Below, piece after piece: positions 2,308 through 24,398 of a stretch of DNA of 64,000 nucleotides. Numbering within the stretch: the first letter of the stretch is position 1; each line of letters opens with the position of its first letter. Source of the DNA: Candidatus Bathyarchaeia archaeon. Its GTDB lineage: Archaea > Thermoproteota > Bathyarchaeia > Bathyarchaeales > Bathycorpusculaceae. The translations under genes and the position numbers were made by a program. The notes under the pieces were generated by a model. That model was not told the DNA's origin. It searched no databases and worked only from the letters and a program-made list of their open reading frames with translations. The DNA is taken from assembly GCA_038728085.1 (NCBI GenBank), contig JAVYUU010000004.1, positions 20,674 to 84,673 of the forward strand, in the 5' to 3' direction.

Positions 2308-2868
2308 TCATTTCGACAAAAGTAGGTCTATTAACGCCTTTTGGTCTACCTCCGCCCTTGTCCGCCAGTCCAAGTATAGCTGTTGATTCTCATCTTGGGA
2401 TATATAGCCATACCTTATATAGCGGTCAATGTTTAGGCTTGTCTTCCAACCAGGAAGTTTTTCGCGTAGAAGCTCTTCCACCTCTCTACGGGGCGCCTTG
2501 CCTTTCTTCGATATTATGTAGGCTATTGTTATGGCTAGCCCCGCTAGATCGTCTATTCGCCACCCAATCATCTTAGCCTCTTTTGGCGTTAATTCCCCGC
2601 GAAGGGTTATGTAGAATCTCGCCCTGTCCAGCTCTTCAAGCGTCGGCTTCTCAGACTGCGGCTTTTCACCCTCTTCAAAGACTGTTTTAACTTGGAGGTC
2701 TAGGGGTTTCAAGTATTCGTCTAATATGCTCAGCACTTTCGGGTAATCTGCGCCTAGGGCTTTGCGGAGCTCCCACCCCTTCACTCCAGGCTTTGCATGT
2801 CTACGGTAAAAGAGCATGTGAACAGCGCGTTTGATTTTGCTAGCATAGACGGCTTTCCGCTTGCTCAT
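2308..2868 (-). CDS. ScpB/KITE-like tandem winged-helix protein (third gene of SMC-like operon)
   Basis: LAGLAITIAYIISKKGKAPRREVEELL resembles the ScpB second winged-helix motif (LAIIAYKQPITRAEIEEIRG). A first winged-helix-like segment is GVKGWELRKALGADYPKVLSILDEYLKPLDLQV. The start overlaps the upstream stop by 4 nt. Confidence 0.65.
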   Translation of the reverse strand: MSKRKAVYASKIKRAVHMLFYRRHAKPGVKGWELRKALGADYPKVLSILDEYLKPLDLQVKTVFEEGEKPQSEKPTLEELDRARFYITLRGELTPKEAKMIGWRIDDLAGLAITIAYIISKKGKAPRREVEELLREKLPGWKTSLNIDRYIRYGYISQDENQQLYLDWRTRAEVDQKALIDLLLSK

Positions 2869-3695
2869 TGGGCTTTAACGCTCCTTCTCCATTTCTCCCA
2901 CTCCTCACGGGTTATGGCTATCGGCAGCGAAACCATCTGTTTTTTGGCTGTTCGCCTCTGCTGTCTCTCGAAAGGCTTAATGAATATCTCCTCCTCTAAG
3001 GGGTGAACTTCAAGGGTTGCATATCCATAAGTGACGAGGAAACTAGTCAAAAAGGCTCTATAAACGGTCTCCTCGTAGGTTTCCGCCCCAACAAAATCCC
3101 AATACCTAATTTTGCCATTTTCGCCTCTTTCCGCCACAAGCCTCTTCAACTCGCTCCAAAAGTTCTCTAACTCCTCCGTGAAAGCCTTATCCCGCAAGAT
3201 TTTAAGCCTTAAAAGCTCCTCGCGGGAGGCAACGCCGCCAGCCTCTTCAAGCGGCGGAAACTCTTTCCACCTATCCTTTAAGGGTGGAAGGTTTTCCCAG
3301 TAAAGCAGTGCCTCCTTCAGGCTGTAGAGGGAGATTTGTTCAAGTTCAACTATTGGGTGCCAAGCTCCGAGAAAAGCGTCCACTATGGCTTCTTTATCAA
3401 GGTTCTTTATCTTCTCCTCTAAGAGAAATGGATCTGTATAGAGGGATGTGGAGCGATGCTTAACCCATTCGCTCTGAAGCTTTATAACTGAGGCGAGGCG
3501 GTTTATTGCCTCAGCATCCAAACACAGATCTTCAGGCTGCTCCCAGTCTGGGAAAAACTCCCTCACAACCCTAATGATCTCGTCCACATCTACCAGGAAG
3601 GGGTCAAGACCGCGCTCCTCAACAGCTTTACACATCTCAATTATCCTTTGAAGTCTCTCCCGCCCAACTTTGACGCGTTCCTTCTTCGACTGCAT
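2865..3695 (-). CDS. ScpA-like kleisin (second gene of SMC-like operon)
   Basis: The N-terminal GLDPFLVDVDEIIRVV and the C-terminal winged helix ETVYRAFLTSFLVTYGYATLEVHPLEEEIFIKP resemble ScpA N- and C-terminal domains. The start shares 1 nt with the SMC-like stop (TAATG). Confidence 0.65.
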   Translation of the reverse strand: MQSKKERVKVGRERLQRIIEMCKAVEERGLDPFLVDVDEIIRVVREFFPDWEQPEDLCLDAEAINRLASVIKLQSEWVKHRSTSLYTDPFLLEEKIKNLDKEAIVDAFLGAWHPIVELEQISLYSLKEALLYWENLPPLKDRWKEFPPLEEAGGVASREELLRLKILRDKAFTEELENFWSELKRLVAERGENGKIRYWDFVGAETYEETVYRAFLTSFLVTYGYATLEVHPLEEEIFIKPFERQQRRTAKKQMVSLPIAITREEWEKWRRSVKAQ

Positions 3696-5614
3696 TAGGC
3701 AACCTCTTTAACTATGGATTTTCCCTCAACATTCTGGACTGTGATAACGTGAATGGCATCCTCTGCGAAAGTGATTTGGCTTGGAGTTATAATCACATAC
3801 TGGGCATCTGAACTCTTAACCGTTGAAATCAGCATCTGCGCTATCAACTCGCGGTTTTTCGGATCCATGTGGACGTCAAACTCATCAACAGCGCGGAAAG
3901 GTGAGCGCACATGTTGCTGCAAAGCCAACAAGAAACTCATGGTGGCTGTTGTCCTTTCGCCTCCGCTCTGGGTGTAAGCGTTAAGCGGCACCGGTTTACC
4001 GCCCTTAAAGCCTACAAGAATCTCAAGTCCAGCCGCCTCGATGTCATGCTCATTTACAAGCCTAACTTCGCCGACAGCTTGAACCTGCGCCAAAATCCTC
4101 TGATACTCCAGATTTACACGATCTAGAAGGCTCTGGATCACCGTCCGCCAAGCCTGCATTCGCGTCTTAACCTCTTCCAATGCTTTCTCCCGGTTTTCAG
4201 CCACAAGCCGCGCCTTTTCCTTAAGCTCAAGGTAAAGCTGCGAGTATGACTCATACATGCGCTCGACATCCTCCGAGACACTCGCCAAAGCGGCTAAGTG
4301 CCCATCAGTTATGCGGATTTCATTTAGGATTTCGCCGGCGCTTTTTATGACGGCTATCCTTGGACCTGTTTCCTCAGCCCTCTTAATGGCATTGTTAAGC
4401 TGAAACCTTGCATCTTTAAGTGCCGCCTTCAACTCTTCAATGTTCGCCTTTGCGTTTTCCATTCTGTAATTTAGCAGTGCAAGTTTAACCCGTGTATCTA
4501 TGATTTGACTTCTAGCCTTCTCTATTTGCTCTTCAAGAATCTGGGTTTCCAATAATTTCCTGTTCAATTCCTCGTCCAGCTTGGAAACTTTTAGCCTCGA
4601 ATTTTCCATAAGCTCTTTTAGGCTTTCAGTTCTCAAAAGTTTCAAGGGTTTACCGCTGATAGCCTCGTTCTCTATGAGGGCTGCTTCAGCCACAAGCTGT
4701 TCACAAAGCGAGAGTGCAGCTTGGCTTCCGGCCTTCTCCCGTTCTAGGCTTATCACGCTTTCCAGATTTTTCTTCCATTCACTTTTCAACTTTTCAATCT
4801 GGTTTTGCTGAATTTGAAGTTGCTCCTCAGCTGTTTTGGCTTCTGTCTCGATTTGTCTTAACAACGCCAACTCTTTTTCACGTTTGGCTTCCAACTCTTC
4901 TACGATGGCTTCACGGCGGTTCACTTCAGCCCATGCAAGCTCCCGCTCTAGAAAGCGTCTTTTCGCCATCAGCTGCTTCTTTTCTTGGAATCTCTCGTAT
5001 TGCTCCCGCCAGTAGTTGAGCGTTTGCTCCGCCGACTCCAAAAGCTTGTTTATAGACTCTTCTTGGCTCAGTATACAGGTAAGCTTCCTCTGGGCTTCAA
5101 GCACGTTTTCACGGTAAGCCTCAAGCCCAACCGCTGCCTCCACCATGCGGAGCTTTTCCTGAGGCGAAAGAATCGTGAACTGCTCCACCATGTTCTGGTG
5201 CATGATAATCAACATGTTGTCGGGGTCAACGCCAAGCTTAGCCAGAAGCCTCTCTACATCCTGCTTTGAAGCCGCCCGGTTTTCAAGCTCAAACCAATAC
5301 TTGCCATCCCGCCTCAAAACCCGAGTCAGAAAAATCTGGTCCTTGTTAAACTTTGGAACTGGACGTTTACCGCCCCGCCTAGAATTATCCAGTATAAGCG
5401 TCACACGTGCCTGATCCTTACCCCAACGGATCAAGTCGCTAAGCTTTCTAGAGCGCTCCGTGTAGGATTGGCCCAGAGCCACAGAAATAGCCAGTAAAAG
5501 CGAGGACTTTCCAGCGCCATTGGGGCCACAGACAACGTTTACGCCGGGTTTAAAGGGTACTCTAGCATATTCGTAGCTCATGAAATTTTCGAGGATCACC
5601 TCGCTGATGAGCAC
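3695..5614 (-). CDS. SMC-family ABC ATPase, half-size (639 aa), short coiled coil, no recognisable hinge or zinc hook
   Basis: Walker A is GPNGAGKSS, the signature motif is QSGGERT, and the Walker B/D-loop is AVDEFDVHMD. About 330 aa of Glu/Lys/Leu heptad-rich sequence lies between the head halves. Confidence 0.85.
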   Translation of the reverse strand: MLISEVILENFMSYEYARVPFKPGVNVVCGPNGAGKSSLLLAISVALGQSYTERSRKLSDLIRWGKDQARVTLILDNSRRGGKRPVPKFNKDQIFLTRVLRRDGKYWFELENRAASKQDVERLLAKLGVDPDNMLIIMHQNMVEQFTILSPQEKLRMVEAAVGLEAYRENVLEAQRKLTCILSQEESINKLLESAEQTLNYWREQYERFQEKKQLMAKRRFLERELAWAEVNRREAIVEELEAKREKELALLRQIETEAKTAEEQLQIQQNQIEKLKSEWKKNLESVISLEREKAGSQAALSLCEQLVAEAALIENEAISGKPLKLLRTESLKELMENSRLKVSKLDEELNRKLLETQILEEQIEKARSQIIDTRVKLALLNYRMENAKANIEELKAALKDARFQLNNAIKRAEETGPRIAVIKSAGEILNEIRITDGHLAALASVSEDVERMYESYSQLYLELKEKARLVAENREKALEEVKTRMQAWRTVIQSLLDRVNLEYQRILAQVQAVGEVRLVNEHDIEAAGLEILVGFKGGKPVPLNAYTQSGGERTTATMSFLLALQQHVRSPFRAVDEFDVHMDPKNRELIAQMLISTVKSSDAQYVIITPSQITFAEDAIHVITVQNVEGKSIVKEVA

Positions 5615-5770: not shown

Positions 5771-6847
5771 TTACCGCAGTTTTATTGGTCCTATGCGTTT
5801 TTCGCTTCGTCTTAAGAACGCGCTTTCCACGCCGGTTACAACGGCCATGACGGAGACGCTTCCATGCATTTCCTTGTCAACTCTTGCACCCCAAATCACC
5901 TTTGCCTTCGGTGGCAGCGAGCGCTTCACGATTTCAGCTGCATGGTTAACCTCGAAAAGAGTTAAGTCTTCGCCGCCGGAAACATGTATGAGCAAACCGC
6001 GGGCCTTAGTCACGTCCTCTATGTCCAGGAGGCGTCCATTTATCGCCTTTTCAACAGCCTGCTCCACTTGGCGGTGCAGGATCAAACATAATAACGTGGA
6101 TCAAGGAAAAGGGGATTGTCGGAGCAAAACTTGTGGCGGTTAACACCGACGCCAACCACCTTAGAATAACGAAGGCTGACAGGAGAATTTTGATAGGTGC
6201 AAACCTCACGAAGGGCTTGGGCTGCGGCGGCTACCCAGAGCTTGGAGCGAGAGCCCTCCTTGAAAGCGCCGACAAGGTAATCCAAGAAATAGCCGACGCC
6301 AACATAATATTCCTAGTTGCCGGGTTGGGCGGCGGGACAGGAACAGGTGCAATAACAGCCCTATCAGAGGAGTTGCGCAGAAGATTTGCAGAGTCGCCGG
6401 TTCCACGCCTTGTCATTGGGGTGGTTACCCTCCCCTTTGAGGTTGAAACCGCTAGGATGGAGATAGCCAAGAAGGGATTGGATCGGCTGAAGAAGTCATG
6501 CGATACAGTCGTTGTGATCGACAACAATAGGCTTGTTAAGATTGCCGGAAACCTGCCGTTTAAGGAGGCCTTAGGTGTTGCAAACACGACTATTGGAAAA
6601 TTCATTAAAGGCATAACAGAGACCATTACCACGGCAAGCCTAATCAACCTAGACTATGCAGACCTAAGAGCCATAATGCAAGGCGCGGGCCTCGCCTCGA
6701 TAGGCGTCGGCGAGGGCACGGGAGAAGGTCGAGGCCTACAGCCATTATCGATGGTTGGGCGAGTCTTGCAAACTGTTCGATTTCTTCCTCTTTTACGTAG
6801 GTGGAGGATGGTACTTCGGAGGGGGTGACTGTTAGCTCGGCTTTCAC
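5771..6847 (-). pseudogene. ftsZ: cell division GTPase FtsZ, disrupted by internal inversion of 6067..6733
   Basis: The N-terminus (MKAELTV...QPSIMAVG) is on the minus strand at 6847..6734. The core (LGGAGSN...GGGTGTG...NLDYADLRAIM...GEGR) is on the plus strand at 6067..6733. The C-terminal domain (VEQAVEKAINGRLLD...GGEDLTLFEV...) is on the minus strand at 6066..5771. The piece lengths 114+667+296 sum to 1077 nt, which is in frame after re-inversion. Confidence 0.9.
6067..6733 (+). other. inverted segment carrying FtsZ codons ~39-260
   Basis: The plus-strand frame reads ...LGGAGSNIITWIKEKGIVGAKLVAVNTDANHL...GVGEGTGEGR. FtsZ homology stops abruptly at both ends. Only a 2-bp complementary microhomology (CT..AG) lies at the breakpoints, so the boundary is ambiguous between 6067-6069 and 6731-6733. 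Confidence 0.85.
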
Positions 6848-6984
6848 AAGGGTTCACCTCTGTCTGTATTAAAGTGCGACGCACAAACTAATAAATATTA
6901 CGTCTTACGAATCACGATATATCCTATTTTCCAGAATACCCCTTATAAGACTCAACACCATCATCAAGCCAACGGTGGCAAAAC

Positions 6985-7311
6985 ATGAACAAACTTGAAT
7001 TAATGAAAAAATTCATGTACACGTTTGTTGGAAACGGCCTTCACTTAATAATAAGGGAACAGGACAATAGCTATCTAATACACACGATAGAGATCATGCA
7101 GAAGACGGATGAAACATGTATCGTGAAGGAGATCCCTGTTGGCGACTACTTCCTCCACATGGTTGCTGTTGACAAAAACGGTGAGGAAGCCTCAATAATA
7201 TGCAATTGGAGCCCCGAGCTCCTGCAAAGCCTTCTAGAAAGCTCTGAAATAGCCAGGGAGGCGGGATGCTCAAGCATCATAGTGTTCAAGGATCCATTGA
7301 CCAACAATTAG
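6985..7311 (+). CDS. hypothetical protein
   Basis: This is a 108-aa ORF divergent from ftsZ with no recognised motif. Confidence 0.45.
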   Translation: MNKLELMKKFMYTFVGNGLHLIIREQDNSYLIHTIEIMQKTDETCIVKEIPVGDYFLHMVAVDKNGEEASIICNWSPELLQSLLESSEIAREAGCSSIIVFKDPLTNN

Positions 7312-8754: not shown

Positions 8755-9828
8755 ATGCCAATAATTGAGCGTGTTGCATGGGATAATGCTGGGCCAGAGG
8801 ACATTGCATATCGTTTTCCAAAACTCACGCTTAAGTATGGAAGCCAAGTTATTGTGAAGGAAAATCAGTGGGCAGTCTTCTTCCGAGACGGAAAAGCCTA
8901 CGACGTCCTTGGGCCTGGAAGGCATACCATAACCAGCAGCAATATTCCGCTTTTAACCGGCGCCTTGAAGGCTTTGGGGATCATAGGCGACATCTTTGAC
9001 TGTGAAGTTGTTTTTGTAAGCAACAGTCAGTTCCGGGCGAACTTTGGCGGAAAAGCCTACTCGGCGCCAAGCGGCGACATAAAATATCAGGCGGAGATAG
9101 GCTTTTATGGTTATATGCTTTACAAGGTTGAGGATCCGAAGCTTTTCGTTGTAGAGTTTTTTGGCAACAGGGGTGCAAGCACTTCACGGGACGTGGAAAA
9201 CTACATTAGAGGCTTCATTAACGAGCGAATTATAAGCGAATTTGGACGCCACGACATTTTCGAGATTGTTAAAAATGCGGACGCCACCACTGACAAAGTA
9301 GCCCTAAAAATCAGCGACGAAGCCGCAAGAATAGGCTTAAAAGTGATCGACTGCGTCTTCGAAGGCATAAACATACCTGAGGAGGCTAGACGCTTTGCTT
9401 CGGGACTAGGCACCCAAGCCATGATGATGCAATACATGAAGGAAACCGCAGGCGAACTAAAGGGGGCTGAGGGTGGAGGCGCCGCAGCCGCAGGCTTAGG
9501 CGCAGGTGTGGGCTTAACAATGCCCTTCTTGATGGCACAGCAGCTGCAGCAAGCCCAAGCCCCCCAACAACTAATTGTCTGCCCGAACTGTGGAGCTAAA
9601 AATCCGGCTGGCATGAAATTCTGTGGTCAATGCGGTTCAAGTCTATTGCCGCCGGCGAAGGTTAAATGTCCAAACTGTGGAGCTGAAAATCCGGCTGGCA
9701 TGAAGTTCTGCGGAAACTGCGGCTCGCCACTAACCCAAACTGGCGTAGAAACCACTTGCCCCAAATGCGGTGCAAAGAATCCACCCGGCATGAAGTTCTG
9801 CGGAAACTGTGGAACAAAACTGGGCTAA
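8755..9828 (+). CDS. SPFH/band-7-related protein (YdjI/COG4260-like) with three C-terminal zinc ribbons
   Basis: The N-terminal KYGSQVIVKENQWAVFFRDGKAYDVLGPGRHTITSSNIPLL resembles YdjI-type SPFH proteins. An Ala/Gly/Gln linker follows, then three copies of CPxCGAxNPxGMKFCGxCG. Confidence 0.7.
   Translation: MPIIERVAWDNAGPEDIAYRFPKLTLKYGSQVIVKENQWAVFFRDGKAYDVLGPGRHTITSSNIPLLTGALKALGIIGDIFDCEVVFVSNSQFRANFGGKAYSAPSGDIKYQAEIGFYGYMLYKVEDPKLFVVEFFGNRGASTSRDVENYIRGFINERIISEFGRHDIFEIVKNADATTDKVALKISDEAARIGLKVIDCVFEGINIPEEARRFASGLGTQAMMMQYMKETAGELKGAEGGGAAAAGLGAGVGLTMPFLMAQQLQQAQAPQQLIVCPNCGAKNPAGMKFCGQCGSSLLPPAKVKCPNCGAENPAGMKFCGNCGSPLTQTGVETTCPKCGAKNPPGMKFCGNCGTKLG
9580..9813 (+). repeat. three tandem zinc-ribbon coding repeats (about 57 nt each, spaced 87-90 nt)
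   Basis: The repeats are tgcccgaactgtggagctaaaaatccggctggcatgaaattctgtggtcaatgcggt, tgtccaaactgtggagctgaaaatccggctggcatgaagttctgcggaaactgcggc and tgccccaaatgcggtgcaaagaatccacccggcatgaagttctgcggaaactgtgga. Confidence 0.85.
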
Positions 9829-23843: not shown

Positions 23844-24398
23844 TTGAGCGAGGAAGAGGAAACCCTAGAGGAACGTAAGGCGAAAATCCTGATCAAGCTA
23901 AGAGGCTACAAGCTAATCAAAAAGGAGAAAGAGAAAAACATTGCAAGCTACATCGTCGAAGACCCAAAGGAAGGAGAGAAAAAGCAGATCCTAATCTGGT
24001 GCGTTCCAGACGAAACAGTAGGCATACAAACCATAAACCGCATGGCAAAAGCCATGAAAGAAGCCCAAATAGAACACGGAATCCTCATAGCAAGCGGCCG
24101 CTACACCAACGCCGCCAAACAAACCGCAAAGAAAAAACACATAGAACTTCTACCTAAAACCTTTCCCGTATTCGACATATTCGAGCACGTGCTCGTGCCA
24201 AAACACGAAATCCTAACCCCCGAAGAACGCGAGAAAGTCCTAGCCCAATACCGTGTTAAGCCATACCAGCTACCCCAAATAAAAGCCTCAGACCCAGCAG
24301 CCAAAGCCATAGGCGCAAAACCCGGCGACATAATACGCATAATCCGCAAAAGCCCTACAGCCGGCGAGCACATAGCCTACAGATATGTCGTAGAATAA
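23844..24398 (+). CDS. rpoH: RNA polymerase subunit H (Rpo5) with long N-terminal Rpb5-jaw-like extension
   Basis: The C-terminal [69 protein letters not shown] is canonical RpoH. About 110 extra residues lie upstream in the same ORF. Confidence 0.85.

Follow-up and report, generated by a model that had tools for sequence, protein, structure and literature searches.

A base-perfect internal inversion splits, and probably inactivates, ftsZ1 in a clade of Bathyarchaeia

In a 64,000-nucleotide stretch of DNA from a Candidatus Bathyarchaeia archaeon (assembly GCA_038728085.1, contig JAVYUU010000004.1, positions 20,674–84,673; hereafter the window), the cell division gene ftsZ is cut into three pieces by an inversion of its central 667 bp, and the same rearrangement recurs in public assemblies made by several pipelines. 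We consider it very likely that this is a recent and natural inactivating inversion, which arose by illegitimate recombination and left a null allele in the form of a young pseudogene. FtsZ is the textbook essential division protein. Bathyarchaeia belong to the small number of archaea for which FtsZ/SepF and ESCRT-III have both been reported, and either of the two systems may be the one that divides such cells.

The anatomy of the locus is directly visible in the sequence and its table of open reading frames (ORFs), in the orthologue alignment and in tblastn searches. Piece A (6734–6847, minus strand) comprises ftsZ codons 1–38, covering the variable N-terminal tail and the beginning of strand S1, and reads MKAELTV...QPSIMAVG. 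Piece B (6067–6733, plus strand) is the inverted 667-bp segment and comprises codons 39–260 plus 1 nt; its translation, LGGAGSNII...GVGEGTGEGR, lies on the strand opposite to pieces A and C. Piece C (5771–6066, minus strand) holds codons 261–358 plus the stop, with most of the FtsZ_C domain and the C-terminal tail (VEQAVEKA...RIGPIKLR, then stop). When the reverse complement of 6734–6847, the plus strand of 6067–6733, and the reverse complement of 5771–6066 are joined, they form a single 1,077-nt ORF of 358 aa, complete with its stop, collinear with every orthologue and alignable without a gap both to these and to Methanocaldococcus jannaschii FtsZ1. A first-pass annotation, made from the sequence alone, had described these three pieces, their strands, and the ORF restored by re-inversion, all of which our analysis bears out. 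Its N-terminus on the minus strand from 6847 also stands in coordinates and translation, with the small correction that the start codon is a GTG (6847–6845).

Independent orthologues (P0134, P0122, and P0050) used as tblastn queries each return three abutting high-scoring segment pairs, the middle one strand-reversed. The middle part matches the plus strand at 6067–6733 (E 1e-107 to 1e-129), the C-terminal part the minus strand at 6070–5774 (E about 1e-52 to 1e-55), and the N-terminal part the minus strand up to an end at 6731 (E 4e-10 to 3e-5). The breakpoints cannot be placed from the reading frame by itself, which stays open for many shifted pairs of positions as well. DNA alignment with 11 orthologues and two partial sequences places both junctions exactly, and since neither junction requires any gap, no base was gained or lost at the inversion. 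The conserved ftsZ upstream region (6848–6873, minus strand) is still directed into piece A and keeps motifs that are also kept in the sister lineages, namely a Shine-Dalgarno-like GAGGTGA (6854–6860) and a TATA-like TTTAATA (6867–6873), both of predicted function. From the native start, however, translation now runs into antisense B, leaving a 67-aa ORF (6644–6847). Two Logan contigs from different runs, L017 and L018, both start at position 6883 in the conserved upstream region; we considered these starts as a further breakpoint and rejected this, as they probably reflect graph branching at k-mers in common with co-occurring sister lineages.

The left breakpoint lies at 6066/6067 (feature 6066–6069), with the microhomology CT at 6067–6068, and the right breakpoint at 6733/6734 (feature 6730–6734), with AG at 6732–6733. 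The two bases of microhomology noted in the first pass are thus confirmed. Position 6069 is T in all inverted contigs and C in the trace of an intact allele (described below) and in most orthologues, which read CTCG; the CGAG at the right breakpoint is the reverse complement of this ancestral CTCG at the left end. Because most orthologues and the L009 allele, which carries that intact trace, read the ancestral-type CTCG at the A/B junction and CGAG at the B/C junction, an inverted microhomology of 4 bp is likely for the ancestor. A repeat search with a seed of 6 found no inverted repeat pairing 6066/67 with 6733/34, and a Pfam scan of the about 70 ORFs of the window found no recombinase, integrase, transposase, Snf7, or Vps4, so that the earlier statements that flanking inverted repeats and a recombinase gene are lacking hold for both breakpoints and for the window, respectively. 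A palindrome, AGGCCT (6732–6737), crosses a junction in both states (intact GTAGGC/CTTGG, inverted CGAG/GCCTAC). Involvement of a restriction site through this palindrome is unsupported, as the breakpoint ambiguity excludes the palindrome centre.

The restored protein is an FtsZ. It matches the Tubulin/FtsZ GTPase family PF00091 at residues 33–198 (133 bits against a cut-off of 33; E 1.9e-38) and FtsZ_C, PF12327, at residues 246–341 (101.8 bits against a cut-off of 27; E 2.6e-29), and it aligns over residues 20–343, as one collinear stretch, with Methanocaldococcus jannaschii FtsZ homolog 1 (1W58/1FSZ; E 8.6e-81). These Pfam and PDB alignments show the three pieces to be collinear parts of one FtsZ, as the first pass had supposed. 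The motifs GGAGSN (G1), GGGTGTG (tubulin signature), and NLDYAD (T7 loop) all lie in piece B and line up with the same motifs of M. jannaschii FtsZ1. In the window genome itself the coding sequence is divided over two strands, with no uninterrupted ftsZ ORF, and tblastn finds no FtsZ paralogue elsewhere in the 64 kb. Synteny of ftsZ1 with transcription and translation genes has been described (Pende et al, PMC8178401), and the neighbouring RpoA'', L30e, and NusA-KH genes agree with it. Together with the closest solved FtsZ, this synteny fits an assignment of the restored gene to the FtsZ1 type.

Is the inversion peculiar to one assembly? Base-identical junctions from C through B to A, with C and A in reverse orientation, are present in at least 13 other assemblies from ENA, Logan, NCBI metagenome-assembled genomes (MAGs), and JGI. 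They occur in ENA in ERZ27245617 (a MEGAHIT-style k141 assembly); in Logan in SRR7539601, SRR27730044, SRR27730045, and SRR5468568, and, for the right junction only, in SRR7539481; in NCBI in GCA_038887875.1 and GCA_038820365.1, and partially in GCA_038865345.1 (left junction) and in GCA_038859005.1 and GCA_038842065.1 (right junction); and in JGI in 3300008000 and 3300025090. The isolate names of the related NCBI MAGs (ZZQ, JZ, DRTY) match the Tengchong geothermal-spring survey (PMC11094006). The broken products have been deposited as well. In an exact-sequence look-up across a collection of 15 billion proteins, which requires an exact full-length match, the 231-aa ORF of piece B is present (Logan, ENA), as is the 104-aa ORF of piece C (four NCBI accessions), and start-site variants of 237, 246, and 98 aa occur under adjacent accession numbers within the same MAGs. 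Gene callers accordingly give piece B as "Tubulin" ORFs of 231, 237, or 246 aa, to which an out-of-frame tail of 31 aa is fused, and piece C as ORFs of 98 or 104 aa. Public records label these fragments "cell division protein FtsZ" or "hypothetical protein", not pseudogene. The restored 358-aa protein is absent from the same collection by exact look-up. An identical 175-aa neighbour stands on 19 contigs, 13 of them with inverted-type products; among the 10 places listed, three stop short of ftsZ.

The inversion is limited to one shallow clade. The comparison of the orthologous locus in related genomes that had been called for drew on 12 Bathyarchaeia species representatives from a GTDB-based collection and on 33 Bathyarchaeia loci from JGI metagenomes. 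The gene is collinear in all 12 representatives, with an uninterrupted ORF in 11 and small lesions of its own in the twelfth (L026), and it is collinear where covered in 28 of the 33 JGI loci. The five exceptions are two disrupted genes (L064 and L066), a contig that carries piece C of the window lineage (L067), and two loci cut by contig ends (L065 and L069). The closest homologues are FtsZ proteins of Candidatus Bathyarchaeia MAGs, and the nearest other species reach 91–94% protein identity as against 80–85% DNA identity, from which we conclude that ftsZ1 has been under strong purifying selection for nearly all its history and, therefore, that the inversion is recent on that scale.

Two sister lineages carry null alleles of their own. 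In the first, L064 (Ga0080004_1120322, 3001–4239) and L066 (Ga0123519_10021187, 3001–4051), which come from two JGI metagenomes and are 98% identical to the intact L036, have a 2-nt insertion that shifts the frame near codon 120 and an element inserted after "...KAWGLLI". The translation of this element, CPKCGLIYNRDLNACINIAHALKRG, matches PF07282 (29.1 bits against a cut-off of 26.3), the Cas12f1-like TNB or TnpB zinc-ribbon region. L064 has two more small indels and retains only about 160 nt of the TnpB-derived element; in L066 the left end of the element forms a hairpin, CCCAGAGCTTTAGCTCTGGG. Such insertional inactivation by an IS200/IS605-type TnpB element sets these alleles apart from the window allele, which contains no mobile-element sequence. 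In the second lineage, that of P0003, ftsZ1 is intact in L071 (2501–3574), has lost 1 nt at codon 57 (GGGG>GGG) in L070 (2361–3433), and in L026 (243–1316; JZ-1_201705_bins_87, a GTDB species representative) combines this deletion with one extra nucleotide 25 nt downstream, so that two stops come into frame. The three alleles are near-identical, and the remnants are publicly annotated as "cell division protein FtsZ" (310 and 289 aa). Since three related lineages, that of the window included, hold null and intact alleles through unrelated mutations, loss of ftsZ1 appears to be tolerated or favoured, and the diversity of the mutations argues against any special inversion mechanism. This agrees with the published distribution of division genes: Supplementary Data 1 of Pende et al (2021; PMC8178401) lists ESCRT-III in five of five Bathyarchaeota, and FtsZ (one copy each) with SepF in two of the five, which suggests that FtsZ has been lost repeatedly in the phylum while ESCRT-III was kept. 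The same phylum and gene family are concerned there and here; the published pattern, however, is one of presence and absence between distant genomes, whereas we see null alleles within species beside intact ones, in three lineages. By analogy, ftsZ1 would be dispensable in this group, or its loss favoured, with ESCRT-III a presumed backup in the genome of the inverted lineage itself.

Within the inverted clade, haplotypes are 0.01–0.65% apart over 10 kb, and every haplotype group is inverted. Further damage is seen in piece A: half of the inverted sequences that cover the site (7 of 14, counting 13 public contigs and the window) carry a 1-nt insertion after 6831 (CTAACAG>CTAAACAG), which shifts the frame after codon 5 and places a TAA directly before the remainder of the piece. 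Besides this indel, the ftsZ variants in the clade are two synonymous and two non-synonymous changes, the latter (M>T and R>H) segregating in piece C, compared with five non-synonymous and nine synonymous variants in the SMC-like neighbour. Four features together fit the young-pseudogene reading, namely a short microhomology, a shallow clade (≤0.65%), intact orthologues elsewhere, and a segregating frameshift. All four combinations of the 6831 indel with an A/G single-nucleotide polymorphism (SNP) at 5868 are present (in L001, L003, the window, and L012), a pattern that could be due to recombination within the inverted clade, to a recurrent indel, or to short contigs whose consensus mixes strains.

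Two contigs preserve traces of an intact allele. The first 99 nt of JAWBSZ010000001.1 (L009/L015) are forward-oriented piece A sequence with an intact junction to piece B, ...ATGGCTGTAGGC being followed directly by CTCGGCGG..., after which B ends in the inverted junction into reversed A. As the contig is a chimera of two graph paths, reads with an intact A/B junction must have existed in that sample. Within its 216 nt, the intact segment (L009:1–216) has four private SNPs (K19T, 6069 T>C, 6096, and 6183), and we therefore take its source to be a different strain, about 2% diverged, rather than the inverted clone. The second contig, Ga0105163_1007923 from JGI (L067), matches the window over 3.2 kb at 99.7% identity and starts with AG followed by TGGAGCAG, AG being the final bases that the intact (..TCGAG/TGGAG) and the inverted (..CCAAG/TGGAG) contexts have in common. 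Such a start may be the signature, albeit an indirect one, of a de Bruijn-graph branch at the B/C breakpoint. A full-length intact allele of the inverted lineage was not found by exact look-up; 11 candidate sequences (the restored protein; combinations of K19T, M>T, and R>H; an M35 start; a V start) are absent, which is a weak test given that an exact full-length match is needed.

Several observations weigh against an inactivated gene and have to be set beside those in its favour. The evidence base consists of assemblies rather than reads. Both junction types apparently occur together in at least two samples (L009 and L067), as a switch would give. Apart from the codon-6 frameshift, the three pieces are open in every haplotype, and the ratio of non-synonymous to synonymous variants in ftsZ (2:2) is no different from that in the SMC-like gene (5:9), the variants being too few for a selection test. 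Nor is the codon-6 frameshift proof of decay, for two reasons: the N-terminal tail in which it sits is poorly conserved, and after re-inversion translation could in principle begin at an in-frame ATG, codon 35. We do not take the open pieces as a sign of selection. Only 3.5% of random substitutions would create a stop, and in a clade less than 0.7% diverged open pieces are what a young pseudogene is expected to show.

The first-pass annotation had left three explanations side by side: an artefact of assembly or engineering, a very recent inactivating inversion, and one state of an invertible switch. The second is supported, with the qualification that several haplotypes of a clade already share the allele, which hence is not a one-sample event. 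It also has parallels in pseudogenes made by micro-inversion, through illegitimate recombination or template switching, in which breakpoints of 2–4 bp, no mobile element or recombinase nearby, confinement to one shallow clade with collinear orthologues around it, and the onset of further damage such as a frameshift are likewise found. The window allele departs from these in that no base was gained or lost, in that the gene is one usually considered essential for division, and in its high frequency in many wild samples.

Could the segment instead flip reversibly, by a recombinase encoded elsewhere, so that FtsZ1 is turned on and off and the window holds the OFF state? Invertons of this kind are known (Hin/Gin, fimS, Bacteroides), and intragenic ones, including an archaeal example that introduces a stop, have been described (Chanin et al, bioRxiv 10.1101/2023.03.11.532203). 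As in these systems, the inversion lies within coding sequence and truncates the product, and the two types of junction can be found in one and the same environment, an intact A/B junction (L009) and a graph branch at B/C (L067) coming from samples that also hold the inverted form; in addition, the inversion is base-perfect and fully restorable, with its pieces still open. Invertons, however, have inverted repeats, a site-specific recombinase, and both orientations on one clonal background, whereas for the window allele the breakpoints share an identity of 2 bp with no inverted-repeat pair, no recombinase is encoded within the 64 kb, and the intact junction stands on another SNP background and thus belongs to another strain. 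Moreover, the inverted-clade haplotypes from the at least 13 other assemblies are all OFF, with no revertant among them, the piece-A frameshift segregates at about 50%, and the same gene has been lost in sister lineages by unrelated and irreversible mutations. We therefore disfavour the switch that had been proposed and regard it as highly unlikely. About equally improbable, in our estimate, is a repeat-independent toggle of FtsZ1 in an archaeon with both FtsZ and ESCRT; the springs sampled would then strongly favour the OFF state, and the intact-junction traces of L009 and L067 would represent the rare ON state. Positive selection for loss of ftsZ1, acting in parallel in several hot-spring Bathyarchaeia, with the transition from FtsZ to ESCRT of the TACK archaea now underway, would fit the data better than such a toggle.

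The N- and C-terminal domains of FtsZ can fold independently. It is conceivable that the locus is still functional, with the fragments expressed separately as a split FtsZ or with one fragment in a new role, and gene callers do predict an FtsZ_C ORF of 98–104 aa and Tubulin ORFs of 231–246 aa, the former with a GTG at the start of piece C that the AG microhomology has preserved. No Shine-Dalgarno-like sequence, however, precedes this GTG. On the plus strand no canonical start lies upstream of GGAGSN, the first ATG, GTG, or TTG being at 6133, and since this follows the G1 motif, any product of piece B would be made without the phosphate-binding loop. The B and C ORFs abut head to head, leaving no room between them for promoters; piece C has the segregating changes M>T and R>H; and such a split was recovered in no other Bathyarchaeia. 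Judged on these sequence features, expression of useful ftsZ fragments is unlikely, and a locus that functions in this way is a very remote prospect.

Metagenome assemblers can misjoin at repeats. An artefact, with a collinear true genome and an inversion made by the assembler or by sequence manipulation, finds some footing there and in the demonstrably chimeric L009 contig at this very locus, but it has next to no chance of being right and we regard it as refuted, for four reasons. Four pipelines, working on many runs, gave base-identical junctions in at least 13 other assemblies; the breakpoints have no repeat at which an assembler could go astray; the deposits of broken ORF products are independent of the window; and the inverted contigs have SNP haplotypes of their own. 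An engineered or planted inversion is rejected on the same presence of broken products and junctions in public data.

How, then, might the inactivating inversion have come about? We infer a single reciprocal illegitimate recombination, or a double template switch, between the CTCG and CGAG that lie 660 bp apart in the coding sequence, an exchange that would have flipped ftsZ1 codons 39–260 with zero bases lost or gained. Its date would fall between two splits, that from an intact sister strain now about 2% diverged and the later one among the present haplotypes, which are 0.01–0.65% apart. From then on the native promoter and start would yield only the 67-aa peptide, 38 FtsZ residues plus junk; the GTPase core lies antisense, with no start codon upstream of its G1 motif, and the C-terminal domain is cut off from any obvious translation signal. 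These three consequences together are the reason why we regard the allele as null and the gene as a young pseudogene that is presumably not expressed as FtsZ. The null allele would then have spread and diversified into several haplotypes across many samples and begun to collect lesions. The strain with the intact allele co-occurs with it in at least one or two samples. The inverted allele may persist because ftsZ1 is dispensable, or its loss favoured, in this group.

If this holds, ftsZ1 would be dispensable in these archaea, and the repeated loss of FtsZ across the phylum could be studied as an ongoing process. Pseudogene formation by micro-inversion is known, and this case stands out in being base-perfect, in lying in ftsZ, and in its commonness among wild populations. 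Of greater interest is the pattern across three hot-spring Bathyarchaeia lineages, in which ftsZ1 is being inactivated in parallel; their alleles provide a tangible basis for asking whether FtsZ or ESCRT-III divides the archaea that have the two. Specific samples and MAGs are now identified in which to ask about decay of SepF, about presence and expression of ESCRT-III, and about a link to spring conditions. We found no relevant literature on ftsZ pseudogenes in archaea and no paper that reports what we describe, and two studies of hot-spring Bathyarchaeia (PMC8407382, PMC11094006) make no mention of their division genes.

On one flank of ftsZ lie genes for an SMC-like protein (639 aa), an Nse4_C-like protein (276 aa), a 186-aa ORF, NusA-KH, L30e, and RpoA''; on the other flank lie three small unknown ORFs and then an SPFH/zinc-ribbon protein. 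The SMC-like ATPase, the Nse4_C-like putative kleisin (a weak match), and the 186-aa ORF form an apparent operon adjoining ftsZ (2308–5614), which could be a chromosome-organisation module beside the division gene. Also adjoining ftsZ is a second small segregating truncation, in the ORF at 6985–7311: at position 7310 the window has an A, which creates a stop and leaves an ORF of 108 aa, and L002, L006, L013, and L017 agree with it, while eight contigs of the clade (L001, L007, L010, L012, L014, L016, L018, and L019) have a G (Trp) and an ORF of 129 aa. The SPFH/Band7 protein (8755–9828) has a C-terminal array of zinc-ribbon repeats, especially at 9669–9786, and this region differs strongly in L012/L015 (327 aa as against 357 aa) in a manner that resembles variation in repeat copy number. 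In archaea, RpoH is usually the C-terminal domain alone. Further along the window, at 23844–24398, a 184-aa protein combines an N-terminal Mrr_cat or inactive restriction-endonuclease-like domain with RNA_pol_Rpb5_C (RpoH).

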